64,000 bases of DNA, taken from IMG/VR virus record IMGVR_UViG_3300009159_008629, positions 1 to 64,000 of that record; one strand, written 5' to 3'. A program made the position numbers and the translations under genes. The number at the start of each line of letters is the position of its first letter. Within the stretch, counting starts at the first letter, position 1. The stretch is from a virus. This document shows positions 1,371 through 55,608 of this stretch, piece by piece. The notes below the pieces were generated by a model that was given only the letters and a program-made list of their open reading frames with translations, searched no databases and was not told where the DNA came from.

Positions 1371-1745
1371 TTAAAGATTTATCTGATTGTCGTCCGGTCC
1401 TATGAGGAGAGCCTTCTCGTACCACTCTTCCGGCAGAACGTTGTACTCCCCTTTGGATAGATCCATGGCTTCTTTCTTTGATATCGTCTGCGACGAGATA
1501 CCGCCTCGGTTTCCGTGGTAAGCCAAGTATTGGTCGCTGTTTGGTATCGGGGCGACGAATTTCGACCCCTGGTTCATGGTGGACCCGGAAACCTTGTCCC
1601 TGTACAGTTCCGGGTTTTTCTCGAAAAGCATATCCACCATCTTGACCGGTATCAAGCCGCCGTCCTTGTAGGGTACTTTTATGTTGATTTCATCGGGAAC
1701 CGTAAACCAAGCCATCTCGTTTCTTAGCCATTTTTTGAATTCCAT
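1371..1745 (-). CDS. Hypothetical protein with N-terminal MEFKKWLRNE motif (candidate head internal protein)
   Basis: 124-aa ORF with ATATATA 4 nt upstream of the ATG. Confidence 0.7.
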   Translation of the reverse strand: MEFKKWLRNEMAWFTVPDEINIKVPYKDGGLIPVKMVDMLFEKNPELYRDKVSGSTMNQGSKFVAPIPNSDQYLAYHGNRGGISSQTISKKEAMDLSKGEYNVLPEEWYEKALLIGPDDNQINL

Positions 1746-1749
1746 GAAT

Positions 1750-1756
1750 TATATAT
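1750..1756 (-). promoter_or_regulatory. Late-promoter-like ATATATA box
   Basis: ATATATA-N4-ATG; resembles the T4 late promoter TATAAATA; recurs across the window. Confidence 0.55.
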
Positions 1757-1851
1757 TTGCCGAAACTGAATTTTTCGGATGAATTTTTCCCGCTTGCTTG
1801 TATCGCTTCTGTTTTTTCGATGTCGTGCTGGTTATATATTTAGAGGTAAAA

Positions 1852-2229
1852 ATGCCATTAGTCCAATGGATCATGCAGAACCTGAACAAAATAGTCCTCA
1901 AACAAGAGGGTTCGGGCAAGGTCGTGCTTTATGGCGACGAGACAACTACATCCCAAACGGATTTTTACAGCAATTCAAAATTGGTCAAGTTCAGCATAGG
2001 GGCGAAGGGATACGATGTTTCCGGCAGGGTTTGGGTCATAACCGGGATAAGCGTAAACTCCGACAGCGAGACGGTTTACAAGGCTAAAAAAGGCAACCTG
2101 ACGAAGTTCTTCAATGATTCGGAGATATTCGTCAACCAAAAGAAGAAAGCTTTCGTTTTCCCGAATTTGGACGCCATTCCCCTTGAGAACCTACCGATAT
2201 ACCAGCCAAAACGAATAACCAGGAACTGA
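1852..2229 (+). CDS. Hypothetical protein
   Basis: GAGG RBS before ATG 1852 and TATATA upstream; start moved downstream from the ORF-track 1798. Confidence 0.65.
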   Translation: MPLVQWIMQNLNKIVLKQEGSGKVVLYGDETTTSQTDFYSNSKLVKFSIGAKGYDVSGRVWVITGISVNSDSETVYKAKKGNLTKFFNDSEIFVNQKKKAFVFPNLDAIPLENLPIYQPKRITRN

Positions 2230-2231
2230 AC

Positions 2232-2633
2232 ATGTACAGCTACATCCCAGAAGGGAAAATATTCGTTCGCGGTCAGGCAAGGTCGGTTAGCGACCGTTAT
2301 TCCTGTGTTCCGGAAGGTGGCTTGGAGTCATTCGGCTGCTCCAGGGTCGAGAGGAGAATATCAGTCTCTTACAGGTGGGGAGAAAGATCGATCGTCTATC
2401 TGAAATACAAAGCCATGAGGGGATGCATCGAAAAGGTCGCGATAAAGAGGGTGGTCATGAACAATAAGTATGGGGGTTACATACCGGTATACTGCGACAC
2501 CCTGAACTCCATATACAACGAAAACGAACTGATTACCGAAACCGAAGCCAGGCAATTGGTTCAGGCGTACATAGACAGAAAGAGGTCTGAGATCGCCCAA
2601 GCTGAGAGAAATTGCGAAGCCAACTCTATTTGA
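2232..2633 (+). CDS. Hypothetical protein
   Basis: 133-aa ORF starting 2 nt after the previous gene; AGGA RBS. Confidence 0.65.
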   Translation: MYSYIPEGKIFVRGQARSVSDRYSCVPEGGLESFGCSRVERRISVSYRWGERSIVYLKYKAMRGCIEKVAIKRVVMNNKYGGYIPVYCDTLNSIYNENELITETEARQLVQAYIDRKRSEIAQAERNCEANSI

Positions 2634-3201
2634 TTTTTCCGCGCATGAGCTTTACGACTTGCATCGCGTCGTCGACCGCGCAGTGGATTCCCGATAGTTC
2701 CGAAGTGTAGTTCGACCTCTCCGTGCAAACTTTGAGGTCGGGAAGGCAATAGTCGCCATTCCTGAAGTAGAGTATCGCCGGGTCCAAGAACCTTTTCCTG
2801 AATATTATGTTGTTCCAGTTCTCTTTCGGTATCTTCGCCACCATGAACTGGTAGTCGAAAACCCCAAAGTTCTTCCCGGCGACATTGAGGACTATCTGCC
2901 CGTACTTGTTCGGCTCGACGCCGTTGTCCTGGAGGAAGTTCCCGAAGGAATACATCAGATCCTCTATGAACATGCATTCGTCAGGCTGTTCCGAGAGCTT
3001 CTTGAATATCCTGTGGTGCATGGACGCTGCTCTTGGCTCGCACGCCAGCGGTCCGTTCTTCTTGATGAACTTGTGGAATACGGGTAGTTTGTCGAACGGG
3101 GTTTCCGATTCCGTCCTGTCTATGACGGCTGCGAACTCGATTATGTCGTGGACCAGGGGGTCGGTCCCTGTTGTCTCTATGTCTATTGAAACGTACTGCA
3201 T
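2626..3201 (-). CDS. DEDDh 3'-5' exonuclease (oligoribonuclease/DnaQ-like); C-terminal part of the 574-aa ORF or a separate gene
   Basis: IDIETTG (ExoI), GKNFGVFD (ExoII), HCAVDDA (ExoIII); has its own ATG at 3201. Confidence 0.8.
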   Translation of the reverse strand: MQYVSIDIETTGTDPLVHDIIEFAAVIDRTESETPFDKLPVFHKFIKKNGPLACEPRAASMHHRIFKKLSEQPDECMFIEDLMYSFGNFLQDNGVEPNKYGQIVLNVAGKNFGVFDYQFMVAKIPKENWNNIIFRKRFLDPAILYFRNGDYCLPDLKVCTERSNYTSELSGIHCAVDDAMQVVKLMRGKIK

Positions 3202-3263
3202 TGCATCGCTTTCTGTTTGGTCGCTTCCTTGGGAACATGATCGTATCATGATTGCGGGAAAAT

Positions 3264-4350: not shown

Positions 4351-4357
4351 TTTTCTC

Positions 4358-4573: not shown

Positions 4574-4595
4574 GGTTTTCTCCTTTTTGGTGTTT

Positions 4596-7100: not shown

Positions 7101-7382
7101 ATGAAAACATTCTCAAGCTACATAGAAACCAGATTGGACGAAGCGGACGCACCTTCCGGCGGAGCACCTCCCGGCGGAGCACCTCCTATGGGAGCGCCGC
7201 CTATGGGCGGAGGAGCGCCGCCTATGGGAGCGCCGCCTATGGGCGGAGGAGCGCCACCCATGGGCGGAGGGGCTGGCGGCGGCGCCGTAGCGCCGACAAA
7301 ACCAGCCAAGAAGATAAAATCCCACAGCTTGTGGTCAGCCTGGAAGAAAATATTCAAGGACAAGGACGAGAAGAAAAAATAG
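7101..7382 (+). CDS. Gly/Pro/Met-rich low-complexity protein with N-terminal MKTFSSYIE motif
   Basis: AGGA RBS; ATATATA at 7059-7067; GAPPM repeats; basic C-terminus. Confidence 0.7.
   Translation: MKTFSSYIETRLDEADAPSGGAPPGGAPPMGAPPMGGGAPPMGAPPMGGGAPPMGGGAGGGAVAPTKPAKKIKSHSLWSAWKKIFKDKDEKKK
7152..7270 (+). repeat. Coding tandem repeat (GGAGCGCCGCCTATG[GGCGGA] units)
   Basis: About six GAPP(M/G) units visible in both DNA and protein. Confidence 0.85.
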
Positions 7383-14447: not shown

Positions 14448-16088
14448 ATGGCAAAATACATTTTCGTGGTTGGTGGCGTCATATCCGGCACGGGCAAAGG
14501 TGTTGCCGCAGCCAGCATAGGTCTTCTATTGAGGCTTCGAGGTCATGTCGTGACTTTGGTCAAGTTCGATCCGTACTACAACATCAACGCTGGCATCCTC
14601 GGACCCGGAGAGCATGGGGAATGTTTCTTGTGCGACGACGGCACGGAGACTGACCTTGACTTGGGTCACTACGAAAGGATAGCTGGAATAACGGTCAGCA
14701 AGGACAATATTTGCACCCACGGAATTCTCCAGAAGGAACTGATCGAGGAACAAGAGCAAGGGAAGTACCTCGGCGAGACCATACAGGTCAATCCCCACCT
14801 CACAGACAAAATAGAGAAGAGGCTGGTCGATCTCGGCAAGAACCACGACATAGTCATCGCCGAGGTTGGCGGGACAGTCGGCGACTCGGAAAGCTTTGCG
14901 TTCTACGAGTCGATCAGGCTTTTCAAGCAAAGCCATAGATCCGAGGTGCTTATCGTAATGGTCGCCCCCATATTGTGGATCAAGACCATCAAGGAATTCA
15001 AGACGAAACCCCTCCAGAATGCCGTCAAGGACTTGCAGAGGCACGGCTTGCAGGCTGATGTCCTTCTCTGCAGGGTTGAGAAGCCGATACCGGAGAAGAT
15101 TCTGGACAAGGTGTCTCAACTTTCCAACGTGACCAGGGAATGCGTTTTCGAGGCTCCCGATTTCGAGTCCATATACGAGGTTCCATTAGCCTACTACAAC
15201 CGCCATGTCGACGACTTGTTCGTGGATCTGTTTCACCTCAACAGAAGCGCCTGCAGGATCCACAAGTACCGCGAGGTTGTCGAGAAATACACCAACAACA
15301 ACCTCAGACCGATTTCCATAGGGATTTTCGGCAAGTACGACAATTGCGACGAAGCTTACATATCCCTGAAAGAGGCTTTGCTGCATGCCGGCATAGCGAA
15401 TGACTCCAAGGTGGAGATTCATTGGTTCAAGTCGGAGGATCTGGAGAAGTACAAGGACAACCGTGGTCTGCACAAGTTTTTCGAGAACCTAGACGGGATA
15501 ATCGTACCGGGCGGGTTCGACAACAGGGGGATAGAGGGCAAGATAAGGTGCATACAATATGCTCGCGAGAAGAAAGTTCCATTCCTCGGCATATGCCTTG
15601 GTCTGCAATGCGCCGTCATAGAGTTTTCCAGGAACGTGTGTCGCCTTGAGGGCGCCAACAGCATGGAGTTCGACAAGGAAACCAAGAATCCGGTGGTGAA
15701 GTTCGTTTCTGGTCAAGATGGGCTGACGAAAAAGTCGGCAAGCATGAGGCTTGGTGCATATGATTGCGAGCTCAAGAAGGAAACCATAGCATACGAACTT
15801 TACGGGCAGAAAACGGTGAGGGAGAGACACAGGCACAGATACGAGGTCAACGAGTCCTACATTCAAGGTTTCGAGGAAGCCGGGTTTTTGGTCAGCGGAA
15901 GGAATCCGCAGACGAATCTGGTCGAGATCATGGAGTTGAATGCCGATTTGCATCCTTTTTTCATAGGCACACAGGCTCATCCCGAGTTCAAGAGCAGGCT
16001 CACCGCGGCAGCCCCTTTGTTCAAGGGTTTGATAGCCGCAGCCATAAAGAACAAAAAAGTCGCGCCGGAAAACATAAATAAAGCATGA
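14448..16088 (+). CDS. pyrG: CTP synthase
   Basis: GGVISGTGKG, KFDPY, ETDLDLGHYER, GGTVGD, KTKPLQ, GICLG, ERHRHRYE and HPEF. Confidence 0.97.
   Translation: MAKYIFVVGGVISGTGKGVAAASIGLLLRLRGHVVTLVKFDPYYNINAGILGPGEHGECFLCDDGTETDLDLGHYERIAGITVSKDNICTHGILQKELIEEQEQGKYLGETIQVNPHLTDKIEKRLVDLGKNHDIVIAEVGGTVGDSESFAFYESIRLFKQSHRSEVLIVMVAPILWIKTIKEFKTKPLQNAVKDLQRHGLQADVLLCRVEKPIPEKILDKVSQLSNVTRECVFEAPDFESIYEVPLAYYNRHVDDLFVDLFHLNRSACRIHKYREVVEKYTNNNLRPISIGIFGKYDNCDEAYISLKEALLHAGIANDSKVEIHWFKSEDLEKYKDNRGLHKFFENLDGIIVPGGFDNRGIEGKIRCIQYAREKKVPFLGICLGLQCAVIEFSRNVCRLEGANSMEFDKETKNPVVKFVSGQDGLTKKSASMRLGAYDCELKKETIAYELYGQKTVRERHRHRYEVNESYIQGFEEAGFLVSGRNPQTNLVEIMELNADLHPFFIGTQAHPEFKSRLTAAAPLFKGLIAAAIKNKKVAPENINKA
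16074..16080 (+). promoter_or_regulatory. Late-promoter-like ATAAATA box
   Basis: CATAAATA-N4-ATG 16085. Confidence 0.55.
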
Positions 16089-16621
16089 ACTTCAAACAGT
16101 ACCTATTAATGGAAAACGAGGAAGATTTCGCCAACAAGGTTGGAAAGATATACAACTCATTGAATGACTTGTCCAAAGTGGTAGACGACAAGGGCGTGCG
16201 CCTTGGCGACCTAGCCAACGGCATAGTGGGCGAGATAAAGATTGTCCTCACAGGGATTAGCCCTCCCAAGATGAAGGGTCTGGTCGAGAAGATGCAAGCC
16301 ATAGCCATCATGATAAAGAAGTCCATGGATGGCAAGGAGAAAGACAAGGAAGCCAAGTCTCTCCCAGAAGCCATAAGGATAGCGTTGGCTGACATGGAAA
16401 AGATCAAATCGCAGATGGGCTTGCCGATCAACGACCTTGGAAGCCCCAACGACGACGTTCCGGCAAAAGACGACGCTGCGGTCTCGAATCCAGTGGAGAA
16501 GGAAAAGAAATCAGTCGTTCCCGATTCGAAGTCGCTGGTGGAGCCGACCGCTCCAGGAACAATACCGCCAGACAACGCCCCGTCACTCGGCGGAAGCACT
16601 GGCACACTAAAAAACCTGTAG
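16085..16621 (+). CDS. Hypothetical protein with N-terminal MNFKQYLLME motif
   Basis: 178 aa with a Pro-rich tail. Confidence 0.7.
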   Translation: MNFKQYLLMENEEDFANKVGKIYNSLNDLSKVVDDKGVRLGDLANGIVGEIKIVLTGISPPKMKGLVEKMQAIAIMIKKSMDGKEKDKEAKSLPEAIRIALADMEKIKSQMGLPINDLGSPNDDVPAKDDAAVSNPVEKEKKSVVPDSKSLVEPTAPGTIPPDNAPSLGGSTGTLKNL

Positions 16622-18945: not shown

Positions 18946-20250
18946 TCACTCGAACTGCGACAAGTCGTATATCCTCGAACACCTCTGGTCTATCCAGACC
19001 TTGGATCCGCCGCTCGTGAGGAACCAAAACCATTTGTCCGGGGCGTTGGTCCTTATCGAGTCTCCATATCCGTCGGTTATGACGAACACCGTCGGGTGTT
19101 TTATTTTTTTAGACCGCGTTTCCGCCTCGACGAATTTCTGCAATATAGAGAACATGGTGCCGCCGCCGCCGTATATCCTCCTGGACGCGAGGGTGGTTTC
19201 GCGCACCATGGTGTCAAAGCAGAAGAGCCGTATGTTGAACTTTTTTGGGTTCAACGATCTGGCAGCCTCGAAGAACCTTTCTTTCAGGCTCCAGCAGCTT
19301 CCCGATGTGTCCATGAAGAAGAATACGTCGATCTTGTCGTCTTCCTGACCGAAGCAGTGGGTTTCCATCTCGCTTGGAAGGAAGAGGGAACTGGACATCT
19401 CCTGGCTTCTTCTGGATTTCCTAGTCCATTGTTCAGACTGGTCGTAAGTGTTTTTCATGGCGCTTATCTCCCAACGCCTTATGACGGACTCCCATTTCCT
19501 TTTTCCCTTGGATTTCCCGTTCGCCAAGGAAACCCAAGACCCTTCAAGCGTCCCAGCCTCATCGCCATACGCGAAATGTTTGTCGACGAATCTTTTTATC
19601 GACTCCTTCTCCTCTTCCGTGGACTCGCCGGATATCTTGTTCATGACCTCCTTCCAGTCGGCTTCGGAAAGGGCGGCGTGGTCATCGAGGCATCCGGAGT
19701 TAAGGTTCATCGCTATGCTTGGGTTGCCGTCGCCGAACGTCTCCTTGTACATGTTGAAATAATATTCGTAACAATCGTTTTTCGACACGTTTTTGCCGTG
19801 GAATATGGTGTCTATCCAGCAGAGCCTGTCGCCGTCTCCCGCGCTTTCGCCAGAGCAAAGGTCTATGGCTTTGGACACCGACGATTCCACTTTCGTCCTG
19901 GAGAATCCGAAATTCGTCACCAGGCTTTGGTTTATGACTATGTCCATGCATATGTTGGCTGCGATCTTTTGTTGGTTGGACGCGCTTTTGGATCTTACGC
20001 CATGGTTCAGCATGACATGGAGCATCTCGTGGCACACGACGAAAAGCTTGCCGTCCATGTCCAAATTACCCCAGAACTTACTGTTGAAGGAGAACTTGAC
20101 GAATTTCCCGACCTTGTCGAATTGTATGGCTGCCGTCTCTATGGAATCGTCAACGATCGGCTTGCCGATCGACCAAATCTTGTAGAATATCGCATGGTGC
20201 TCCTCCAGCCTTCCAGCTATTTCCATCCATTCAGATGAAGGTATGCTCAT
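18946..20250 (-). CDS. DUF2201-like metallopeptidase plus vWA domain protein
   Basis: HEMLH (HExxH) and N.CMD..IN; C-terminal MIDAS DTSGS...GGGT..ITDGY. Confidence 0.8.
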   Translation of the reverse strand: MSIPSSEWMEIAGRLEEHHAIFYKIWSIGKPIVDDSIETAAIQFDKVGKFVKFSFNSKFWGNLDMDGKLFVVCHEMLHVMLNHGVRSKSASNQQKIAANICMDIVINQSLVTNFGFSRTKVESSVSKAIDLCSGESAGDGDRLCWIDTIFHGKNVSKNDCYEYYFNMYKETFGDGNPSIAMNLNSGCLDDHAALSEADWKEVMNKISGESTEEEKESIKRFVDKHFAYGDEAGTLEGSWVSLANGKSKGKRKWESVIRRWEISAMKNTYDQSEQWTRKSRRSQEMSSSLFLPSEMETHCFGQEDDKIDVFFFMDTSGSCWSLKERFFEAARSLNPKKFNIRLFCFDTMVRETTLASRRIYGGGGTMFSILQKFVEAETRSKKIKHPTVFVITDGYGDSIRTNAPDKWFWFLTSGGSKVWIDQRCSRIYDLSQFE

Positions 20251-32372: not shown

Positions 32373-32411
32373 TGTTTTTCCTTTTCCTTATGTATGGAGC
32401 ATGGTGGCAAA

Positions 32412-33269: not shown

Positions 33270-33393
33270 CCTGAAGCCCTTGATATTCCCCGGCAGGGAG
33301 AGGCTCCAGACCCCGAAGATTCCTCTGCGTCTTTTCGTGAACGTCCACGAACCCAACCTCTACGAGTTCTCGGAAATCATCGTTAGGCAGTAG
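33229..33393 (+). CDS. Small basic hypothetical protein (54 aa, not in ORF track)
   Basis: GAGGA RBS; MKIPPYKIKKKTHSLKPLIFP... Confidence 0.4.
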   Translation: MKIPPYKIKKKTHSLKPLIFPGRERLQTPKIPLRLFVNVHEPNLYEFSEIIVRQ

Positions 33394-33877
33394 GTTCGCC
33401 CTGGTTTCCGATGGGAGCCGCGGCAAGCTGTGGCGGTGGTGGAGTTCCCGGCGGAGCGCCGGCGTCAGGAGGAGCCCCCGGTGGAGCTCCCGGTGGAGCG
33501 CCGGCGTCAGGCGGAGCCCCCGCGTCCGCTTCCGGAGGTTTCTCGGCTGGCTTGTCGTCGGACAGGAAAGCCTCTAGTTTATCTCTGTTGAATTTCTTCA
33601 GCATAGGTGATTTCATGGCTGTGTCGATGGCGTCGAGCACCCCTTGGTATGCCTCGTCGCCTGCTGGGTCCTCGAGACCGCTGTCTGGGTCTTTGGAGTT
33701 TGACTGACCGGGATTCTCCGGAGGAGCCTTCTGCGCCTGCTCTGGCGGCACTGATGGCGGTTGACCCGGCGCTTGCGGCTGGGCTGGAGGCTGGTCTTCC
33801 TCGAACACCATCCTCATGTCTCCGTTCAGTATCTTCTCGTTCCTTATCTGCTCCATAAACTCAAAAAAGCTTTTCAT
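33383..33877 (-). CDS. Pro/Gln-rich protein with N-terminal MKSFFEFME motif and GAPP repeats
   Basis: AGGAG RBS before ATG 33877; AGAPPDAGAPPGAPPGAPPDAGAPP. Confidence 0.7.
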   Translation of the reverse strand: MKSFFEFMEQIRNEKILNGDMRMVFEEDQPPAQPQAPGQPPSVPPEQAQKAPPENPGQSNSKDPDSGLEDPAGDEAYQGVLDAIDTAMKSPMLKKFNRDKLEAFLSDDKPAEKPPEADAGAPPDAGAPPGAPPGAPPDAGAPPGTPPPPQLAAAPIGNQGEPTA

Positions 33878-33885
33878 TTTTTCTC

Positions 33886-34425: not shown

Positions 34426-34434
34426 AGATTCTCC

Positions 34435-36138
34435 TTATAGTTTCGCGGCTGTCGCTGCTACGTGGGCTGGCGTATTCTTGAGATCTTCGACTAGTTTCGT
34501 GTAAGCCCCAGGCGTATTGCCGTCAAGCTGTCTCACGGTCAAGTCCAAAAGACCAACGAAATTGTTTTGCAGCACTCTTCTGAAAAAAGTCTCGTAGGGA
34601 TGACCAGGTGTTGTGGGGGAATCAGGAAATTCAACGCCATGCTCTCTGTAAAACGTATCTTTGAACAGAGATGTGAGCCATTTGCTCAAGTAGCCGCCTT
34701 TCCCAGCCACTTTGTGCTCAGGTCCGAAAAGCTTGCTTGCCGCGTCTCGAAACATACTTTGGAAAAGTCCTTTTGGGTCGGCAATTTTTTTACCCTTGAA
34801 AGGGGATTGCGAGTTTTGCTCGAATTTTTTAAAATAATCTTCATATAATTGAACTATTGTTGAATATTCGAATCCATCTACGTGTCTCGTTAGTTCTTCC
34901 CTGACTTTCTCTAGCATCGCAATCATGCTTGCCCTTCCGGTATCTGTTTTCATTCCTGTCGCCGTGGCGGCTCCAGAGATGGCGAGATTCATACTTTGTA
35001 TTTTATCGTCGAGAGCTTTCCAATAGTCATTCATTTCTTCTTCGATATTCAATTTCGTACGTCCGAAATCGCCAGCATCGTCTTTTTCGAGAATCCAGTC
35101 TCTCATCCGAATTAATTCCTCTCTAGATCTGGAAGATACGCCTGTTTCTCTCATATGTATTTCTTTTATGTCTTCTGGCGTTGTACTGGACTTGAGGAAA
35201 TCGTTAATTGCTTCAGTATCCTCTAATCTTCCAATTTCCAAGGAAAACCGATCTCCCTGAACATTTTTTTGCGTGCTTTGTGGTATGTTGGCTTCAATGC
35301 CGCTGGCGCTTACATCCGCCACCTTATTTTTCTTTATCACCGCTTTTTTGGCGTTGGGCACAAGTTTACCAAGTCTATTTCTCCAAGTAGACGCCACTCT
35401 TTGTTCGAAGACTCCCCTGTTTCTGCACATTATCACCCCAAGCATCGCAACGTCAAACCATCCGGAGTTGAAATAGTTGAAGATAGCCGAGTTTTGCCCC
35501 TTTTCTGGCTCTTTTTCTCCTTTCCCCCTGTTGATAGCCAATACTTTGGCTCTTTTTTCTGATTCTTTATTCATCCATCCGCCATCCTTGTAGATATGGG
35601 TCATGACTCTTCCTGGATCCCCAGATCGTGACACGTAATGACCTCTTATGATCTGGTCAAATAAGTCTTTGGCAGGAACATCATTATCTTTGTTTTTTAT
35701 TGCAATATCTTTGAGAATACCATGGAAGTCAAAGTCACCAGTCTCGTCGAACTTGTTTTCCCTCATGTACTTTCTGCATTCGTCTTCTATGGTTTCTGGG
35801 GTTATCGGTATCGATTCGCCTCGTATTTCTATTTTTTTTGGCAGTTTGGCATTCCAGTCCTTGAATTCCGGGTGCTCGAGGTTTTTTTCTTTCCCAGTAA
35901 GTTTTCCGCCTATGGACATGTTCCTGACTGATTTTTTTTCGCCACTTGATCTGATGGCGACCGTCTCGGCGTCTTCGCCCTTTTTGTCCTCTATGCCCAG
36001 ATTGATTCTTTTGGCGAACTGAGCTATCCTGAAATTGAACTCTCGATTAAAATCTTCTTTGTAGTCATCCAGTCCATCTAAAATACCTGGGATTAGTCTT
36101 TGGTTTTCGAACAGCCATGTCTTAAAGGAAAATCTCAT
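34435..36138 (-). CDS. Large orphan protein with N-terminal MRFSFKTWLFE motif (AT-rich gene)
   Basis: GAGGTG RBS; ATAGATA at 36158-36164. Confidence 0.75.
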   Translation of the reverse strand: MRFSFKTWLFENQRLIPGILDGLDDYKEDFNREFNFRIAQFAKRINLGIEDKKGEDAETVAIRSSGEKKSVRNMSIGGKLTGKEKNLEHPEFKDWNAKLPKKIEIRGESIPITPETIEDECRKYMRENKFDETGDFDFHGILKDIAIKNKDNDVPAKDLFDQIIRGHYVSRSGDPGRVMTHIYKDGGWMNKESEKRAKVLAINRGKGEKEPEKGQNSAIFNYFNSGWFDVAMLGVIMCRNRGVFEQRVASTWRNRLGKLVPNAKKAVIKKNKVADVSASGIEANIPQSTQKNVQGDRFSLEIGRLEDTEAINDFLKSSTTPEDIKEIHMRETGVSSRSREELIRMRDWILEKDDAGDFGRTKLNIEEEMNDYWKALDDKIQSMNLAISGAATATGMKTDTGRASMIAMLEKVREELTRHVDGFEYSTIVQLYEDYFKKFEQNSQSPFKGKKIADPKGLFQSMFRDAASKLFGPEHKVAGKGGYLSKWLTSLFKDTFYREHGVEFPDSPTTPGHPYETFFRRVLQNNFVGLLDLTVRQLDGNTPGAYTKLVEDLKNTPAHVAATAAKL

Positions 36139-36172
36139 TTTTAACACCTCTTTGATTTATCTATATGCCAAG

Positions 36173-36212
36173 AAAAAAAAATGGGGTAATTTTTTGAAAA
36201 TTACCCCATTTT
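36173..36212 (-). terminator. Intrinsic terminator
   Basis: Perfect 16-bp stem AAAATGGGGTAATTTT-TTG-AAAATTACCCCATTTT followed by a U-tract on the - strand. Confidence 0.8.
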
Positions 36213-36233
36213 GATTTGTTTGTCCTACGCAGA

Positions 36234-36662: not shown

Positions 36663-36769
36663 TTTCGATTCTCCTTGTTTCTGTATTATGTAGAATTAAA
36701 CGGTGAAATTTTTCTCTTTTTTTCGTAAATACCGCACACCTATGAATGAGTTTCGGGAATAAAAATAAA

Positions 36770-37363
36770 ATGACACTAAAAAACAAAGACGGTTCGGTCT
36801 ACAGGCTCCGCAGCCCAAACGCCCTCATGAGGGACCAGACGGTGTGGAACGGATACACCATCCACAACATGAAGTGGGACCCGATCACGCAGGAGAGCAA
36901 GGATGAGGTCATTCCCATGCCCAGCGATTTCTCCGTCAGGGATTCGTTCGTGGAGGAACTGGAATCCAACAAGCCGCCTGCGCACGAGGCAGAACCAAAG
37001 TCTCCCATCGAAAGTCCGAAAGCAGAGGAGAGGAAACAGGATGGCAAAGGCGTCGGTCTCGGGGTCGAGACGACGTTCGTCTGGTGCCTGCCGGCTGTCC
37101 TGAAGAGAAAGAGGGACTCCCTGTACGACGAGGAATACGTCACGGTAAGCTATGGAAACCCGTATTCCTTCGAGGCTGTAATGGTGGAGGAGGGCGACCT
37201 CTCGTTCTCCATGTGGACCACGGCGACGATCGAGAGGGGAAGCGTCGTCTTCCCCAAGACGACGTTCAAGAGGTGGTGGAGGGTCGACGATATAAGGGAG
37301 AAGACTGGCGGATTCCTCTACAGCGGAATGCCTTCCGACTACCAGCCGCACTTCGAGATCTAG
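36770..37363 (+). CDS. Hypothetical protein
   Basis: MTLKNKDGSVYRL; the N-terminus resembles that of the gp14-like gene (MLRNLDGTCYK). Confidence 0.7.
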   Translation: MTLKNKDGSVYRLRSPNALMRDQTVWNGYTIHNMKWDPITQESKDEVIPMPSDFSVRDSFVEELESNKPPAHEAEPKSPIESPKAEERKQDGKGVGLGVETTFVWCLPAVLKRKRDSLYDEEYVTVSYGNPYSFEAVMVEEGDLSFSMWTTATIERGSVVFPKTTFKRWWRVDDIREKTGGFLYSGMPSDYQPHFEI

Positions 37364-37638
37364 GAGTTCGGCGAGGTTATCTTGACTTCGAACCCGAGCT
37401 TGGACAGCTTTTCCCTGTGCTCGTCGACAGCCCTGACGAAACCGACCTCGTAGATTTCCACCATCATGGACACGAAGTCCTTGATGTCCTTGTCGGTCGC
37501 CAGGCTGTGCGACACCCTGTCTATTATCTGCTCATGCTTGGGATACCTTTCCTTGAGTATCTCGAACATGGTCTTCTTGAGCATGTGACCCCTGGGGTTC
37601 GACATGAGGTTGAACCAGCCTTCGTTTGAATCTGCCAA
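37360..37638 (-). CDS. Hypothetical protein
   Basis: AGGAG RBS with TTG start; 92 aa. Confidence 0.65.
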   Translation of the reverse strand: MADSNEGWFNLMSNPRGHMLKKTMFEILKERYPKHEQIIDRVSHSLATDKDIKDFVSMMVEIYEVGFVRAVDEHREKLSKLGFEVKITSPNS

Positions 37639-37639
37639 T

Positions 37640-40270
37640 TTACGTCTCCTTTGGGAATCTTATTTTGAGCTGGTCGTCTATCAACCTGATAGCGGCGTTG
37701 TAGTCGCCAGGAAGAGTCGTTGCCTTCTTCTCGATGATCTTCTTTTTAAGGTTGTTGAGGCTCTCCTCGTTCCTGCGCGTGATATAATATGGGTGGAACG
37801 CCAGGGCTAGGAATTCCTTTTTCTCCTTCAGTTGGTCCGGGTGATGTTCGGAAGCCATCTTGATGATCTCCGGTCTCGGACCATCTTCGGTCTCGGAGCC
37901 GACACCAGGCGTAGCCGCCGTTAGCTTCAGTCTCGGAGCCGCCATATTTATCGGCGAGGACGAAGAAGTCTGCGCGGGAGTTCTGTTCGCGTCCCTATCC
38001 ATGACGTTCCCGGACATGAAGTCTTGAACTATCGTGAGTTGGGAGAATTGGGTCAGCATCTGCGCCATCGTTTTCTTCTGGTTGACGACCGTGTCCAGCA
38101 CGTGTGTGGCTTCCCGCTCCAGTTCGTTGCCGACGATGCCTTTCTCGTCGTGTATCATCTCCTTCAGTAGCGTGTGCATGGCGTCAAGGAGGTTCATCTT
38201 CCTCGTGAATTTATCCTTGAACAGGTTAAGCAGGGCTGTCGTGGTTTCCCCGTGGGGTATGTTCCCGGACGTGTTGAGGCTGTCTGCCTCCTCAGCCTTG
38301 TCGATGAGGTGCTTTACGATGTTCCTCAGCTGATGTCCGCGGTACGGGAACACGAACCTTCCCGTTATTGGTTTCCTTCCACGCTCCGAAAGATGGTCCA
38401 GCTTGTCGTGCAGGTCGGAGCCGAATTCGATGTCGTCCTGGGATATGAGGGTCGTGGGCATGACCTGCGGAACTCCCATGCTTCCGTCTCTGGTTTTCCT
38501 GGTGCCGCCGCCATGCACGCTCTGCTGCAGGAGGTTCGTCGTCTCGTTCCTCGCGTACAGCTTCCTTCCGGATTTGGTGGACAGGGCGTCCTCGAGCAGG
38601 TTCCTCTCCATCTTGGCGACCACGATGTCGTGTATCTCCTTCACGTTACTCATGGCTATGGTGTGTTCCCAAGCCGTGACTCCTCTGCTATCGATCCTGA
38701 TCTGGGATATGCCTTCTACTATATCCTTGTACAGACCAGGATACTTCGGGTCCGAGTCCGGGTACTTTTTCATTTTCCCGAATATCCTCGCTATGGCTTC
38801 GTCGTATCCATTAGTTCCGAACTTGATGGATCTCTCTTTCGGCTTGTTCTGGTTCGGGTGGATCGAAGCGCCGCTCTGGTGTCCCGGTATAGCCTTGTCG
38901 TACTCGTCGTGGTCAAGCGGAACCTTGTCTTTCTTGTATCCCACCCTCCTTTCCATCCTGTCGTCGGGCTTGGCTTCCCTGTAGTACCTGGCTGGGTTGA
39001 GGTAGGGCATTTCTACTTCCACATCTTTGCCGTTCACCTTCACCGTCTTTTTGAAGACCGGCAGGTGCACTGATTGTTCTTTGTCCAGAGTTTTGCCCGC
39101 GCTGTCGGTTTGGTGTCCGGGTATCGGCGGACCCTTGATGTTTTTCAGGCTTTCGTCGCTCTTCTTTTTGTGTTCGAATTCCGCTTTGGCTATTTTCGTG
39201 ATGAATATGCCGTAGCTCCGCTTGTCGTAAATTTTAATCTTGTATTTTTTTCCATTGGGCTCGTTCACGTGCACCTCGCTCGATCCGTCCTCCTTCGTCA
39301 GCTTGGTGCCGTCTTCGAGCGAGACGTCGAAAGCCGGCATCGGACCCCTGAATTTTTCGAAAGGTATGATGTTGAAGAACTTGGATTTGTAAATATTGAC
39401 GAATTTTTCCGTCAGTTTCGTGTCGATGAAGTCTGTTTCCTTCCATCTTTCTATCTTGACCTCCTTCCCACCAGGTATGTTCTTGGTCTCGCCGGATTCT
39501 GGAAGGTCTCCGTATATCCTGTGGAAGTTGTCGGCGATGAGCTTGTGCACGGCTCTGGATATGGTTTTCGCGAGCGGCATCTGCATGCCGGCTGTTCCCC
39601 TCGGAAGCTTACCTTGTCCCGGGTGTGGTTTCGTTAGGTCGAAGCCGTATCTTCCGTGCGGGTGCTCGTCATTGTCGAGACCGATGGCGGAATGGGTTTC
39701 GCCCGCGGTCCTCTCGAGCTTGTGTGCAAGCCTGTTGATGAACGGCTTCGCGTCCACGTTGATCACTTTGGTACCGAACTTGAACGTGTACGTCCTCACT
39801 TGGTTTTCGTTCTCCGGCACGTCGCGCTTGACCCTCTCGACCATGTAGAACGCGAGGTTGTTCGCGACGTTGTTGCTGGCGTCATTGATCCTGCCCTTGT
39901 GCTTTTCCCTCCATTCCTTCCCGTAATCCCTCTTGATCTCTTGGACCATGTCTCTCGTGAAAAGACCGGGCTTGTCGTTGACGAGGTACTTGTTGTGCCT
40001 TCCGCTCTTGAGAGCCCTGTATATCTGCGTCTTCATTTCCTTGGATATCTGCCTCCTTGACCTTTCCCTTTCGGAAAGAGCCTTGTAGAGATCTCTGTTG
40101 TATCTCTGGAGGAGGGCGCTAGCCCATAGTTTTTGTCCCTCGTATTCGAACGGGAACTGGTAGAGGAACTCGAGGTCGTCCTTGTCGATCTTGACCGCGC
40201 CCCTCTCCACCGCCCCGTGGAGAGCCATTTCCAGCAGGTTTTTCTTTTCCAGATATTCAAGGAATCTCAT
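37640..40270 (-). CDS. Large basic orphan protein with N-terminal MRFLEYLE motif
   Basis: 876-aa ORF; GGTGG RBS; CTATATAG upstream. Confidence 0.8.
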   Translation of the reverse strand: MRFLEYLEKKNLLEMALHGAVERGAVKIDKDDLEFLYQFPFEYEGQKLWASALLQRYNRDLYKALSERERSRRQISKEMKTQIYRALKSGRHNKYLVNDKPGLFTRDMVQEIKRDYGKEWREKHKGRINDASNNVANNLAFYMVERVKRDVPENENQVRTYTFKFGTKVINVDAKPFINRLAHKLERTAGETHSAIGLDNDEHPHGRYGFDLTKPHPGQGKLPRGTAGMQMPLAKTISRAVHKLIADNFHRIYGDLPESGETKNIPGGKEVKIERWKETDFIDTKLTEKFVNIYKSKFFNIIPFEKFRGPMPAFDVSLEDGTKLTKEDGSSEVHVNEPNGKKYKIKIYDKRSYGIFITKIAKAEFEHKKKSDESLKNIKGPPIPGHQTDSAGKTLDKEQSVHLPVFKKTVKVNGKDVEVEMPYLNPARYYREAKPDDRMERRVGYKKDKVPLDHDEYDKAIPGHQSGASIHPNQNKPKERSIKFGTNGYDEAIARIFGKMKKYPDSDPKYPGLYKDIVEGISQIRIDSRGVTAWEHTIAMSNVKEIHDIVVAKMERNLLEDALSTKSGRKLYARNETTNLLQQSVHGGGTRKTRDGSMGVPQVMPTTLISQDDIEFGSDLHDKLDHLSERGRKPITGRFVFPYRGHQLRNIVKHLIDKAEEADSLNTSGNIPHGETTTALLNLFKDKFTRKMNLLDAMHTLLKEMIHDEKGIVGNELEREATHVLDTVVNQKKTMAQMLTQFSQLTIVQDFMSGNVMDRDANRTPAQTSSSSPINMAAPRLKLTAATPGVGSETEDGPRPEIIKMASEHHPDQLKEKKEFLALAFHPYYITRRNEESLNNLKKKIIEKKATTLPGDYNAAIRLIDDQLKIRFPKET

Positions 40271-40306
40271 TTTTAGTCACCACCAAATAGATTGAAACGG
40301 TTATGT

Positions 40307-40314
40307 CTATATAG
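40307..40314. promoter_or_regulatory. Palindromic CTATATAG, candidate bidirectional late promoter
   Basis: Lies between divergent genes 40270(-) and 40319(+); CTATATA ends 5 nt before ATG 40319. Confidence 0.5.
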
Positions 40315-40318
40315 TATT

Positions 40319-41191
40319 ATGGACAACAATATGTTATATATACCGCAACCATCGTCGGAACAATACAAGTGTCTTTCCGAGTGCGGCGGCTGCACCGACC
40401 TTGGTCCCACGGACCCGCTCGTCAAGATAGGTCCGAGGAAATCGAGGCTCAAGGTGCGGGAGCAGATAAGGGAATACGTACTCACGATGCTTGGCGCACC
40501 CGTCATAACGATAGAGCTGGACGAGCAGCAGGTGAGCAACTCGATAGACTTCGCTCTCCAGATATTCGAGGAGTATGCCCCGATGGAATACTTCCAGTAC
40601 TACACCTTCTTCACGGTCCCCGGTCAGTCGGTATACGAGATGCCGAACGACGTGGGCTACATAAGGCAGGTCTCCTACAAGGAAACGGCTCAGTACGCGT
40701 TTTCCGCGTCAGACCTCGGCGGCGTGATACCTTTGGAGTACATGGGCGCCGGGGCTTACGGGAGCATAGCCGGCGGCATCAACCCGCAGTCGCCCGTATG
40801 GGGCAAAATGAACGAGTGGGTCCTCTACAAGCAATACGAGGACATGTACAACAGAGCAAGCGGTCAGCAGGGCGGATGGGAATGGCTCGGCGGATACAAC
40901 ACGATAAAGGTGTATCCTTCCCCATACAGGGTTTATCCCGTAATGGTCAGGTATCTCCAGAAGAGACCCGACTTCAAGCAGGTCACCCAGGCTATGCAGG
41001 AGGGGTCCCTTGCGTTCGCGAAGATAATACTCGGCAGGATACGGAGCAAGATATCGAACCCTCCCGGTCCGAACGGCGGCGTACAGCTAGACGGACAGCA
41101 GATACTGCAGGAGGGTCTGGACGAGAAGAAGGATTGGGAAGAGAAGCTTCTCAACAAGTTCGGGGACATCCTCGGACCATCTATGGGATAA
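40319..41191 (+). CDS. Neck protein (T4 gp13-like)
   Basis: YVLTMLGAPVITIELDEQQ and LGRIRSK..PGPNGGVQLDG. Confidence 0.85.
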   Translation: MDNNMLYIPQPSSEQYKCLSECGGCTDLGPTDPLVKIGPRKSRLKVREQIREYVLTMLGAPVITIELDEQQVSNSIDFALQIFEEYAPMEYFQYYTFFTVPGQSVYEMPNDVGYIRQVSYKETAQYAFSASDLGGVIPLEYMGAGAYGSIAGGINPQSPVWGKMNEWVLYKQYEDMYNRASGQQGGWEWLGGYNTIKVYPSPYRVYPVMVRYLQKRPDFKQVTQAMQEGSLAFAKIILGRIRSKISNPPGPNGGVQLDGQQILQEGLDEKKDWEEKLLNKFGDILGPSMG

Positions 41192-41206: not shown

Positions 41207-41752
41207 ATGACAGATTACAACACATGGCTGTTGAGGAAGAACCAGGAACTCCACTCGAAATACATCGAGTGCCGCGAGGAACTGCTCGGCTTGGTCTCCA
41301 GGGAATTCAGCAAGAAAATAGTGACGGAATCCGCCCAGGCTTCCAGGTACAGCATCCACGTAGACTATCGTACCGACATGGAGGAGGTCTTGGTCTCCTT
41401 CGCGAAGCTCGTCCTCGGCTACGTGAGCGCCGGGCTGAAGAAGATGAGTTTCCACACCAAGCACGTGTTCGACGAGAAGCCCCTTAGGCTTCTGGTCTCA
41501 TCGAGGAACTGGGATGACGGCGAATGGGTCGGCATAGTTTCGTGGAGCGAGAAGGATCGTTGTTTCCTTGTGTCCAAGGGCTATTACAACAAGGACAGGA
41601 AGACCGTCTCGGTCAAGTCCACGAACAAGTGCCCGGGAACGGCGTCCGACATCACGAAGGACGTCAGCAACATGATGCACCACCTCAAGACGCAGCCGGA
41701 CAGGCATGTCGAGAAACTGAAGCCCGTGCCTCTCAAGAGGGGTCCTAAATGA
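41207..41752 (+). CDS. Hypothetical protein (MTDYNTWL N-terminus)
   Basis: 181 aa; AAGGTGG RBS. Confidence 0.7.
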   Translation: MTDYNTWLLRKNQELHSKYIECREELLGLVSREFSKKIVTESAQASRYSIHVDYRTDMEEVLVSFAKLVLGYVSAGLKKMSFHTKHVFDEKPLRLLVSSRNWDDGEWVGIVSWSEKDRCFLVSKGYYNKDRKTVSVKSTNKCPGTASDITKDVSNMMHHLKTQPDRHVEKLKPVPLKRGPK

Positions 41753-45862: not shown

Positions 45863-46111
45863 TTAATCCATGTGGTCATGGTTTTTATAAGTGAACTGTC
45901 CGTGATCCACCTTGTCGTCATCGACCTTTTTGCCCATCTTTTGGATGGCGTCAGCCGATGTTGGCATGAAGTAGGCTGCGGGGTAGTGGCTTCTGATGTA
46001 TGCGTCCGGGTAAGCCCAGCTCATAATGCCGCCCCTAGTCGTCTTCTCGGTCAAGTCGTAAACGGGCAATTCTTTCTTGGTTACTTCGCAGAATTTGATA
46101 AAAGACTTCAT
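45863..46111 (-). CDS. Small protein with N-terminal MKSFIKFCE motif
   Basis: GAGG RBS; CTAGATA at 46170-46176. Confidence 0.7.
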   Translation of the reverse strand: MKSFIKFCEVTKKELPVYDLTEKTTRGGIMSWAYPDAYIRSHYPAAYFMPTSADAIQKMGKKVDDDKVDHGQFTYKNHDHMD

Positions 46112-50498: not shown

Positions 50499-51275
50499 AT
50501 GATACCTTACCGCAAATGGAAGTTCCTAAACGAAAGCATATTCAACAGGACGCTCGGAATCACGAACCACCAATCGCTGGGGTTGATCAGCCCTTTCCTG
50601 ACCGCGCAGGATGGAGCTCAGGAAGTTACGTCCAACCAGGACGGGGAAGAAAACGTTCTCGTGGACGAAAAAAGCTCGCACGGCAAGAAAAAGAAGTCAG
50701 AGATGGAGAAAATGGAGAAGTGCAAATATTGTGGGTCGAAGATGAAGAAAGAACACATGGATGAAGACGAATATGAAAGTGACGAAGATGAGAGTGGCGA
50801 AGAGGATGAAGAGGAGGAAGAAGAGGAAGGCGAAGGCGAGGAAGAAGAGGAAGGCGAAGGCGAGAGTGGCGAAGAAGATGAAGATGGTGAAGACGAGGAT
50901 GAGGATGAAGATGGTGAAGATGAGGATGAGGGCGACATGGATGAATCCAAGAAGCATAAATCAAAGAAAGGCATGAAGCACATGAAGTGCATGAAGTGCA
51001 TGAAGGAATCCTTCAAGTACAATTTCATGAAGGGAAAAAAGGGCAAGAAAGTCAAGAAGGGCAAGAAGGTAGACAAGAAATCGGAAGGCGATGTCGCCGC
51101 CGATGGCAGTATTGACGCCATGGTAAAGAAACTCGTCAAGAAGGGAATGCCCGAGAAATTCGCGATGGTTATCGCCAAGAAGAAAGCAGAAAAGGCAAAG
51201 AACGAGTCGTCCTGGATGAATGATATTTTCGGCGGCGATCCCAACAAAAAGAACTATGACGGCATCAACGATTAG
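50499..51275 (+). CDS. Low-complexity protein with a long Glu/Asp tract and Lys-rich segments
   Basis: About 60-residue acidic run; GGAG RBS; ATACATA at 50471-50477. Confidence 0.7.
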   Translation: MIPYRKWKFLNESIFNRTLGITNHQSLGLISPFLTAQDGAQEVTSNQDGEENVLVDEKSSHGKKKKSEMEKMEKCKYCGSKMKKEHMDEDEYESDEDESGEEDEEEEEEEGEGEEEEEGEGESGEEDEDGEDEDEDEDGEDEDEGDMDESKKHKSKKGMKHMKCMKCMKESFKYNFMKGKKGKKVKKGKKVDKKSEGDVAADGSIDAMVKKLVKKGMPEKFAMVIAKKKAEKAKNESSWMNDIFGGDPNKKNYDGIND

Positions 51276-52216: not shown

Positions 52217-52217
52217 A

Positions 52218-53576: not shown

Positions 53577-54487
53577 TTGATGTTCCACTCCTTGTAGAAG
53601 TCGAATTTCTTGTCCTGCATCTCGTATATCTGCGATATCAGGCTGTGCGGCAGGTGCCCTTCGACTATGTGCATGAAGTTGCTTGCCTTTTTGCGGTCGC
53701 AGGAGTTTATGCATTGCCTGAGAAGGTCTATGTCGTACCCGAAACAGGAGTGAGCCTTCAAGACGTCATCGTCGTCGAGGAGCGACTCATCCACCGCCCA
53801 GAATTTCTTGTGACCGCCATCCTCCACGAAATCTATGGTGAACTCCGTCAGGTCGTAAACCAACTCGAGAAGCTTGGGGCTTTTGACCCAGAAGTTTCCT
53901 AGGCACCTGTACTCGAGTCCGTGCTCGGGGATCCTGTGGCTTCCCGCGTGACCGTACACGTTCCTCCGGAAGACCTGTGTGGCGTCATGGTCGAGAAGTA
54001 CTGATGGAAGACCTATGAACAGGTCCATCATCCTTATGACGTTGAGCATCTCCATGCCATCGTTGAGCAGTTCGTTTTCGCCGATGTGGATGTGTCCCCC
54101 GGCTGTCCTGAATCCGGTGGTCTCTATGATCTCCTGGGGCGGGAGGACTTGCTCGAGCGTGTACGCGCAGTACTCCGGGTTGCAGCCGGCTATCCTCGCC
54201 TCCCTTTCGGTGAGTTCGCTGTCCGGGAACCAGTTGGACGACTCGACCTTTATCTCGTGTTCGTGCAACTCCTCGTTGAGGAGGTCGATGGCGTCCCTGA
54301 AGTTGTCGACGGCGTTCATCTTGCTGTAGCTTGGCTTGACCTGCATCTCGGCAAGCACGTTGTCGTAGTACACGGACGCGCCATTCACGGTTTTTCTTTT
54401 TTCTTTGCTCGGAAGCAACCGTATGGCGCTCCTTAGATTGCCATTGTTGGAAACAAAGACTTCTGGGTCTGAACCGAAAGAGAACAT
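53561..54487 (-). CDS. phiEco32-like COOH-NH2 ligase type 2 (amidoligase)
   Basis: FGSDPEVF, DNVLAE, GCNP, RTAGGHIH and YG.AG..R....GLEYR.L.NFW; AGGAGG RBS. Confidence 0.85.
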   Translation of the reverse strand: MFSFGSDPEVFVSNNGNLRSAIRLLPSKEKRKTVNGASVYYDNVLAEMQVKPSYSKMNAVDNFRDAIDLLNEELHEHEIKVESSNWFPDSELTEREARIAGCNPEYCAYTLEQVLPPQEIIETTGFRTAGGHIHIGENELLNDGMEMLNVIRMMDLFIGLPSVLLDHDATQVFRRNVYGHAGSHRIPEHGLEYRCLGNFWVKSPKLLELVYDLTEFTIDFVEDGGHKKFWAVDESLLDDDDVLKAHSCFGYDIDLLRQCINSCDRKKASNFMHIVEGHLPHSLISQIYEMQDKKFDFYKEWNIKCSVS

Positions 54488-54495
54488 GAGACCTC

Positions 54496-55251
54496 CTAGA
54501 AAAGGTGCCACCTTGGTACAACCACACTTGAACCAGCTATTTTCTTTCTAATTTCGTTAGTATATGATAGTATGCCCGTATCATTATGGATGCGGTCTGC
54601 CGTCAGATTTGGGTAGTTCTTTTCCATCTTTTTGTAGAATATCTTCCCGTCGCCCATCTTGATGATCTTCTCCATGCCGAGGAACGAGTCTCTGAGGAGC
54701 GTGGAATCCTTGTTCTGGTATGGCTTTATCCTTTCCGAGATCATGTCGCCAACGGTCTTTTGGAACGAGTTTCCGGGCTTGTGAGCCATGCCAACCCTTA
54801 CGAGAAGAACGAACAGGGATATCATCGGCGGGGCTTTCAGCCATCTTTTTGAGCCCCTCACCATCCAGCACCCTTTTTCGCACCTTCTGGTCTCGCTCTT
54901 TCTCATCCCCAACATTTTCTCCATCTCGTTGATGAACAGGATGGAGTTCCCGATGTTCTCGTCGAAATTAGCGTCGCCGTTGCTCCTGAAAAGCATGCGG
55001 AGCTCGTCCATGTGCATCCTCGGATTCCTTTCCGGGTTGTACATGAAGTTGAATATGTTTATGGGTTTGTTGCGTATGTTGGAGAAAATTATGGTCTGGA
55101 GGAAGTCCTTGCAGAACAAAAATTCGTGGCATTGCTCGTATTCGTCCGAAACGAACGAGAACTCCAGACCTTTCTTGTATATTTGAAGTATGTTCAAATT
55201 TCTTCTCTTTGATTCATACCACTTGATTCTACGAGAACAATTTTCCATCAT
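54496..55251 (-). CDS. Hypothetical protein cotranscribed with the amidoligase
   Basis: 251 aa with CKDFLQ and W...P.MISL..LL.R; sigma70-like TTGAAC-18nt-TATAAT upstream. Confidence 0.7.
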   Translation of the reverse strand: MMENCSRRIKWYESKRRNLNILQIYKKGLEFSFVSDEYEQCHEFLFCKDFLQTIIFSNIRNKPINIFNFMYNPERNPRMHMDELRMLFRSNGDANFDENIGNSILFINEMEKMLGMRKSETRRCEKGCWMVRGSKRWLKAPPMISLFVLLVRVGMAHKPGNSFQKTVGDMISERIKPYQNKDSTLLRDSFLGMEKIIKMGDGKIFYKKMEKNYPNLTADRIHNDTGILSYTNEIRKKIAGSSVVVPRWHLF

Positions 55252-55297
55252 AGGTCCTATTACTTCAAATTATAAGGTAATTCGTGAATCTAGTTCA

Positions 55298-55304
55298 ATA
55301 TATA
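55298..55304 (+). promoter_or_regulatory. Late-promoter-like ATATATA box
   Basis: Exactly 4 nt before ATG 55309. Confidence 0.55.
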
Positions 55305-55308
55305 ATTT

Positions 55309-55608
55309 ATGAAAGGTTTCACGCAATTTCTTGAAAATAACAATGTCGACTCAGAAATAATACACATGTATCTGAATGGCGACGGAGTCTCCGTTTCCGA
55401 TATAGGTGCGAACTATGGGAAATCCGAGACGGATGTATATAGGATTCTGAGGGCGAACAGCATCAATCCGAACAGGAAAGGTGTCCACCACGAGAAGGTC
55501 AGGAGTCTTTCCAGGCTTGGGTGGGGAATTCACGAGATATCCTCCATGACCGGATACTCTACTAGGAACGTTCGTTACATACTTAAGAGGGAACATGGCT
55601 CTATCTGA
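55309..55608 (+). CDS. Tandem HTH protein with N-terminal MKGFTQFLE motif
   Basis: SVSDIGANYGKSETDVYRIL and GIHEISSMTGYSTRNVRYIL. Confidence 0.7.
   Translation: MKGFTQFLENNNVDSEIIHMYLNGDGVSVSDIGANYGKSETDVYRILRANSINPNRKGVHHEKVRSLSRLGWGIHEISSMTGYSTRNVRYILKREHGSI

Follow-up and report, generated by a model that had tools for sequence, protein, structure and literature searches.

A candidate capsid-targeting tag of T4 type at the N-termini of unrelated proteins in a phage with a T4-like backbone

The DNA analysed here, hereafter the window, comprises the first 64 kb (64,000 nucleotides) of a single 74,272-bp virus record in IMG/VR (IMGVR_UViG_3300009159_008629), and the feature under study is a short sequence, the tag, that recurs at the extreme N-terminus of otherwise dissimilar proteins encoded there. 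CheckV estimates the completeness of the record at 15%, which would place the whole genome probably near 500 kb. The window contains genes for a Dda-like helicase, gp46/gp47-type SbcCD, ribonucleotide reductase, CTP synthase and a baseplate hub, together with those for a tail tube, a gp15-type sheath stabiliser, a neck adaptor and a gp18-type sheath. The source phage is a myovirus with a T4 backbone, and the contig covers approximately 15% of its genome. Using a simple codon-usage caller of our own, we called 99 genes on the 74,272-bp contig. Two relatives served for comparison: LR756511.1, an uncultured phage of 595,163 bp that is syntenic with the contig at protein identities of 25-65%, and a close relative at ~90% identity, a 57-kb IMG/VR contig that is 12% complete.

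Ten tagged N-termini had been listed in an initial annotation of the window, and all ten read as it had given them. An orphan of 124 amino acids (aa) on the minus strand (1371..1745) begins MEFKKWLRNE, followed by MA; a TATATA box ends 4 nt before its ATG and no Shine-Dalgarno (SD) sequence is present. On the plus strand, a 93-aa orphan (7101..7382) begins MKTFSSYIE, followed by TRLDE, and its body consists of GAPPMG low-complexity repeats, with an isoelectric point (pI) of 9.8. It is followed by a 178-aa orphan (16085..16621, plus) that begins MNFKQYLLME, then N, and has CATAAATA 4 nt before the ATG; its LR756511.1 orthologue (452013-452474, MEFKKFLITE, about 22-25% identity) occupies the same place after pyrG. 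An acidic (pI 4.2), Pro/Gln-rich orphan of 164 aa (33383..33877, minus) begins MKSFFEFME, followed by QIRNE, behind an SD sequence, and its orthologues in IMG/VR relatives begin MGIFFEFLEKIRIE. Next to it lies a 567-aa orphan (34435..36138, minus) that begins MRFSFKTWLFE, followed by N, with an SD sequence and a TAGATA further upstream; homologues at 65-92% identity retain MRFSFK[TR]WLFEN, and more distant ones begin MINILFRKWFLEN. The largest member, a basic 876-aa orphan (37640..40270, minus, pI 9.4), begins MRFLEYLEKKNLLE, followed by MA, and an 82-aa orphan (45863..46111, minus) begins MKSFIKFCE, followed by V; both have SD sequences, and orthologues of the 82-aa gene in IMG/VR relatives begin MKSFIEFCQE. 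Finally, a 99-aa tandem helix-turn-helix protein (55309..55608, plus) begins MKGFTQFLE, followed by N, with a TATATA box ending 4 nt before the ATG; its LR756511.1 orthologue (489466-489780, 34% identity) is tagged too, reading MDGFKEFFAE followed by N.

Two further proteins had been listed as weaker members, and they fared differently. The 181-aa protein at 41207..41752 (plus), which reads MTDYNTWL...IVTE41 followed by SAQASRYS, is accepted here as a member because its family is usually tagged. The 258-aa protein at 50499..51275 (plus), MIPYRKWKFLNE, has aromatic residues at positions 4 and 7 and Lys in place of the aliphatic residue; it has no comparative support and stays a possible member only. 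Outside the window, the contig has four more tagged genes, at 66665-66940 and 66940-67167 (both minus) and at 71448-71984 and 71981-72532 (both plus), the tags there being MVSFCKLME, M(DM)PSFKDWIYGE, MGFHDFVKIEE and M(M)KNNFQSFIDE. Of these, MGFHDFVKIEE belongs to 71448-71984, which has CATAAATA 4 nt upstream and a tagged LR756511.1 orthologue (182493-183005, 47% identity), a pair that was found once the true start had been restored. The 71448-71984 protein also carries a SWIM-like CxC...CxH motif. Altogether, ~13 tagged genes are well supported among the roughly 100 on the whole contig (~1 gene in 8), and LR756511.1 has about 40-50.

The consensus proposed in the initial annotation, M-x(1-3)-[FY]-x-x-[FWY]-[LIMC]-x(0-2)-E, matches 10 gene starts among the 99 called genes. 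All strong members have F or Y at residue 3-5 and F, W or Y three residues on; an aliphatic residue follows the second aromatic, and Glu comes 1-3 residues later. The 22,708 residues encoded by the contig contain 15 instances of the core [FY]xx[FWY][LIMC]x(0-2)E, and eight of these begin at residue 3-6, against an expectation of ~0.13 at 99 N-termini (binomial P about 2e-12). With internal Met positions as a null, the full expression was matched by 2 of 615. Because this expression was defined after the sequences had been seen, looser patterns were also run. An aromatic-xx-aromatic-hydrophobic pattern beginning at residue 2-7, with no Glu required, was found at 11 of 97 N-termini on the contig where 1.6 were expected (P=7e-7), and at 65 of 1025 in LR756511.1 where 20.6 were expected (P=2e-15). 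The core motif is likewise biased toward protein starts in LR756511.1, and simple position counts in that genome gave 88 Phe at residue 4 against 45 expected (P=4e-9) and 74 at residue 7, again against 45. As a control, a strict score applied to T4 selected 3 of 266 genes, namely ipII, ipIII and one small unannotated open reading frame (ORF). The motif therefore stands at protein starts far more often than chance would place it there.

Tagged proteins are unrelated to one another apart from the tag. When 49 tag-trimmed proteins of the contig and LR756511.1 were compared all-versus-all by blastp, only three matches were returned, all of them cross-genome orthologue pairs; three or four such pairs, at 22-62% identity, keep the tag. 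Searches of Pfam and PHROGs found no recognisable domain in nine of the ten window proteins, the tenth being the tandem helix-turn-helix protein, which the initial annotation had already singled out. For the 876-aa protein there was no usable match in the ESM Atlas and no tblastn match among GenBank phages, and a search of PDB folds with its AlphaFold2 (AF2) model (pLDDT 66) gave nothing below E=0.35. Modelling of the 41207 protein (AF2, pLDDT 87) likewise led to no convincing fold (best E=0.017, TM 0.33). Two members, the acidic 33383-33877 protein and the GAPPMG-repeat protein at 7101-7382, are of low complexity; such acidic or low-complexity members may be head-core filler or scaffold-like material instead of the anti-defence or host-takeover effectors that the initial annotation had suggested as a possibility. 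In LR756511.1, a few tagged proteins have recognisable domains: a Peptidase_C39-like cysteine protease (429897-430484, E=5e-14), a 2H phosphoesterase (411779-412324, tRNA_lig_CPD, E=8e-9) and a DUF5661 protein. The protease and the phosphoesterase are candidate pre-packed effectors. An apparently tagged thiamine pyrophosphate enzyme and a MoxR AAA+ protein in the same genome were judged to be false positives of a loose score.

Recognised tail, sheath, tube and baseplate proteins have no tag, and the claim that no enzyme or tail protein of the window carries it holds. The sole enzyme to score 6.0, a class-II amidotransferase beginning MCGIAGYIGE, was judged a false positive.

Two tagged families could be aligned widely enough to locate the boundary between leader and body. 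Homologues of the 876-aa protein at 28-39% identity all start with the tag when full-length, for example as MKFSNFIKRKIF or MKAVNFKDFFQNKFF, and in all of them the conserved body is closely preceded by hydrophobic-x-E-[MI]-A, in the variants LLEMA, FSEMA, FNEMA, LFEMA, LVEMA and VSEMA. At the corresponding position of LR756511.1, the orthologue has the sequence MLLKFKEFLDN...VLSEMAMAGG. AF2 modelled residues 1-24 of the 876-aa protein with low confidence and placed a lone helix there, at 3-17. By its alignment this family is a conserved, always-tagged large orphan of the clade. The same alignment has 72 invariant columns, including an HGGGTRR-like motif. The 41207 family comprises 51 representatives, and about 14 of the 24 complete members have a clear tag at the start; one orthologue, at 473554 in LR756511.1, is 62% identical to the window protein. 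Leader length varies in this family from about 9 to about 100 residues, and a nearly invariant hydrophobic-x-E stands 3-7 residues before the conserved RYSVEV body. The AF2 model shows a helix at 2-36, a disordered segment at 37-43 and then a folded alpha/beta body, and the IVTE41 site falls in the only disordered segment. In both families, hydrophobic-x-Glu thus separates a leader of variable length from a conserved body, and the modelled N-terminal layout fits the anatomy expected of a cleavable leader. Homologue searches with the 567-aa and 178-aa proteins returned only close relatives (65-98% identity), too similar to locate a leader boundary.

The head genes that such a leader would depend on are present in relatives. 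In LR756511.1, genes for the portal, a Peptidase_S77 (gp21-family) protease (E=6.7e-28), the scaffold and the gp23 capsid protein (E=5e-87) lie in T4 order on one strand. The capsid protein begins MSANAKFLNE and the protease MREGVMLLNE; the scaffold is a 310-aa coiled-coil protein with 21 hydrophobic-x-E sites. Three further relatives that have a homologue of the 876-aa protein also encode the protease, and one of these three, a 76-kb contig, has tagged orthologues of the window's 82-aa, 164-aa and 567-aa genes as well. A head module in the source phage itself is predicted from its relatives. The idea that the tag resembles a repeat unit of the scaffold was unsupported for LR756511.1, where only two tag-like stretches (LHKFLE and LDKILE) occur among the 21 hydrophobic-x-E sites. 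A second, weaker Peptidase_S77 match in that genome (242621-242989, minus, E=3.5e-9, in a 304-aa frame), distant from the head module, may represent another paralogue of the prohead protease.

Tag and boundary both recall the capsid-targeting sequence (CTS) of the T4 internal proteins (IPs). We confirmed from the T4 genome that MKTYQEFIAE, the leader cited in the initial annotation, is that of IPII and IPIII; IPI starts with MKTFKEFTSTTTPVSTITE and then ATLTSE (MKTFKEF...ITE), and Alt with MELITELFDE. Amber-suppression analysis of the IPIII CTS assigned targeting mainly to residues 4 and 7 and processing to residues 8 and 10, and T4 propeptides are 10-19 residues long (PMC9026906). The positions conserved here, aromatic 4, aromatic 7, aliphatic 8 and Glu 9-10, are the residues mapped in T4. 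Some tags of LR756511.1 are almost the T4 sequence (MRTFQEFFMAKE, MKTFKEFAALKE and MKTFREFLQVRE), and MKTFSSYIE in the window is also near the T4 leaders. As in T4, the tag stands at the extreme N-terminus, is about 10 residues long and is fused to otherwise unrelated proteins; as in IPI, there are longer leaders that end in hydrophobic-x-Glu; and relatives of this phage encode a protease of the gp21 family along with a gp22-like scaffold and the gp23 capsid protein. Many tags have one residue fewer than T4 between the aliphatic residue and Glu. There are three ip genes in T4, and Alt with its looser leader, against 13 or more tagged genes on the 74-kb fragment and about 40-50 in the 595-kb relative. 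Unlike the T4 IPs, the putative cargo here extends in size from 57 to about 1,050 aa and includes acidic as well as basic proteins. Unlike the ip genes, those for tagged proteins occur at scattered places in the genome, and a promoter box stands 4-5 nt upstream of the ATG in many of them. The putative cargo is not internal-protein-like, although the tag is. T4 Alt, a 682-aa ADP-ribosyltransferase, is packaged and injected, and gp21 removes its N- and C-terminal propeptides. It offers a precedent for loading a large protein by a short cleaved N-terminal leader and is comparable in this respect to the 567-aa and 876-aa proteins, except that Alt has a known enzymatic function and these two match no Pfam, PHROG or PDB fold. 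In phiKZ-like giant phages, many head-internal proteins, of the ejection and inner-body kinds, also lose N-terminal propeptides to a T4-related protease (gp245 in SPN3US) that cuts after Glu, but at the motif A/S/G-x-E and with propeptides mostly of 111-254 residues (PMC10052503, PMC5694885); they differ from the tag described here on both counts. In T4 itself (KJ477684.1), an unannotated 54-aa ORF on the minus strand (18952-19116) begins MKTFKEFIKED behind an SD sequence; it resembles the MKTFKEF leader of IPI, and a protein with a CTS may have been overlooked here.

The best explanation, and in our judgement probably the correct one, is that the tag is a CTS of T4 type. The initial annotation had proposed capsid targeting, and this proposal is supported in silico by the tag positions, the head genes in relatives, the conservation of the tag in orthologues and the boundary sites. 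We infer scaffold binding, cleavage, packaging and injection. A short N-terminal amphipathic helix, in which an aromatic residue at 3-5 is followed three residues later by another and then by an aliphatic one, would bind the scaffolding core of the prohead, so that any tag-bearing protein would be enclosed as the gp23-type shell closes. The gp21-family prohead protease would then cut after the nearby hydrophobic-x-Glu, which may close the tag itself (E9-E11) or, where the leader is longer, the leader as a whole, and the mature protein, freed inside the head, would leave with the DNA at infection. In T4, cleavage takes place adjacent to the CTS and any fused protein is retained (PMC8442874). 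On the capsid-targeting reading, the phage probably pre-packs many unrelated proteins.

Selection acts on the tag as a peptide, since synonymous codons vary at its conserved residues. The invariant Phe is encoded by TTT 23 times and by TTC 18 times, the genome-wide ratio; eight different codons occur at the aliphatic position, and both GAA and GAG encode the Glu. The conserved classes are those of amino acids: F/Y, W/F/Y, L/I/M/V/C and E. Upstream of the tagged genes in the window, a TAnATA box was found within 60 nt in seven of ten, not in eight as had been claimed. In four tagged genes of the window, exactly 4 nt separate the box from the ATG and there is no SD sequence; four others have an ordinary SD sequence. 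In LR756511.1, TAnATA lies at most 16 nt before the start of 26 of 35 tagged genes (74%), with a spacer of mostly 4-8 nt, and of 63 of 995 other genes (6%). There, 78 genes have such a box, with a spacer peak at 4-5 nt; about half of them start with the tag or a weaker or degenerate form of it, and the other half have unrelated N-termini, including very large proteins of 1,640 and 522 aa. Neither is the box required for the tag, nor the tag for the box. Since the box ends 4-5 nt before the start codon in many genes that have no SD sequence (1745, 16085 and 55309 in the window, and genome-wide in LR756511.1), box-bearing genes may be transcribed as leaderless or near-leaderless late mRNAs. Late, individually promoted expression of this kind would fit prohead cargo, as the synthesis of tagged proteins that have such a late-type box would coincide with prohead assembly.

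Several observations weigh against capsid targeting. Glu often directly follows the aliphatic residue, as in W-L-E, which puts an aromatic residue at P3 in place of the L/I of T4's (L/I)xE. Tagged proteins of the window span pI 4.2-9.8 and 82-876 aa, and several are acidic or of low complexity, while T4 IPs are small and uniformly basic. To our knowledge, 13 or more cargo genes in 74 kb is far above any phage studied. The strong co-occurrence of the tag with a box 4-5 nt before the ATG may reflect some link to the transcript start. No Peptidase_S77, scaffold or capsid gene was found on the 74-kb contig, and none on the 57-kb close relative either; as both contigs are fragments, this absence is uninformative. 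The main competing explanation, which we consider unlikely, is that the tag serves to dock or sort proteins to a different partner, such as an assembly chaperone or another virion part, or that it binds the scaffold with the tagged proteins serving as disposable core material, and that it is not a head-loading signal that ends in injection. Two large tagged genes do lie inside the neck and tail gene cluster, the 33383-33877 (pI 4.2) and 7101-7382 (GAPPMG) proteins resemble filler or scaffold more than enzymes, and Pfam, PHROGs, ESM Atlas and fold searches yielded no cargo function. The match to the T4 CTS at functionally mapped residues argues for capsid targeting instead, as do the conserved hydrophobic-x-Glu boundary, which fits a gp21-type protease acting inside proheads, and the lack of the tag on recognised tail, sheath, tube and baseplate proteins.

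That translation of leaderless or near-leaderless late mRNAs imposes a sequence requirement, and that this and no protein signal shaped these starts, is improbable: it would account for the contrast between 74% of tagged and 6% of other genes with a nearby TAnATA in LR756511.1 and for the tag, or its degenerate form, on about half of the 78 boxed genes, but synonymous codons are free to vary, the conserved classes are amino-acid classes, the tagged genes at 33383, 34435, 37640 and 45863 have ordinary SD sites like the T4 ip genes, and the other half of the boxed genes have unrelated N-termini. We find it quite improbable that the tag is without present function of its own and was inherited from a mobile cassette, promoter plus gene start, from which recombination makes new genes. 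Tagged genes often do come with a promoter of their own, set between backbone genes that are conserved; the corresponding place in LR756511.1 lacks 33383 and 34435; and T-even ip loci vary yet keep the CTS (PMC9026906). Against this, conservation of the tag extends to residue classes and not to its DNA, orthologues at 22-34% identity retain it, and tagged and untagged genes are shared with LR756511.1 equally, at about 40% each. The suggestion that tagged genes are more often strain-specific was not supported, ~40% of each class having an LR756511.1 orthologue. Chance, composition bias or wrong gene starts have a negligible claim to have produced the shared tag: the motif was defined after inspection and the gene starts come from a home-made caller, but looser, unfitted patterns still gave P between 1e-7 and 1e-15, the enrichment repeats in LR756511.1 as an independent genome, and internal Met positions supplied the null, with T4 as positive control and baseline. 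The enrichment tests reject this explanation.

Some features of the region around the tagged genes deserve mention in their own right. Relative to LR756511.1, the interval 33383-36662 of the window has extra genes, namely the 164-aa and 567-aa genes and those at 32394-33269 and 36234-36662; they sit between conserved gp15-like, gp14-like and neighbouring neck genes and are common to IMG/VR relatives. In one DNA run, small indels are numerous toward the 3' end of the 567-aa gene (34440-34709). The stretch at 33300-40400 was found in freshwater, lake and estuary metagenomes from at least 17 studies, and one run covers it at ~30x. Two freshwater metatranscriptome libraries contain short contigs inside the 567-aa and 876-aa genes, which do not include the 5' ends and may derive from DNA carry-over.

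The type of signal and the family of machinery are already known, and the T4 CTS and CTS-like leaders in close T-even relatives have been described (PMC9026906, PMC3012670). We found no paper linking huge or jumbo phages with a CTS-type tag in a literature search that left most subscription-journal papers outside its reach. What differs here is the very distant lineage, a putative cargo set an order of magnitude larger and much more diverse, and the characteristic promoter arrangement. We advance tentatively, as a possibility that falls somewhat short of an even chance, that a clade of freshwater phages of about 500 kb uses the T4 head-loading tag proteome-wide, and that dozens of unrelated proteins are pre-packed and injected as an arsenal. 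In the relatives, this arsenal would include DNA-binding regulators, a C39-type cysteine protease, a 2H phosphoesterase and orphans of about 900-1,050 aa. The tags are near enough to those of T4 for direct trial in the established T4 CTS-GFP packaging assay and with recombinant protease. If the proposal is true, the tag alone, a nine-residue pattern, would predict the injected proteome of uncultured huge phages. The injected set is where anti-defence and takeover functions of the first minute are expected, and it is almost wholly uncharacterised. The T4 loading mechanism would then be old, reach distant 500-kb phages and scale from three cargo proteins to dozens.

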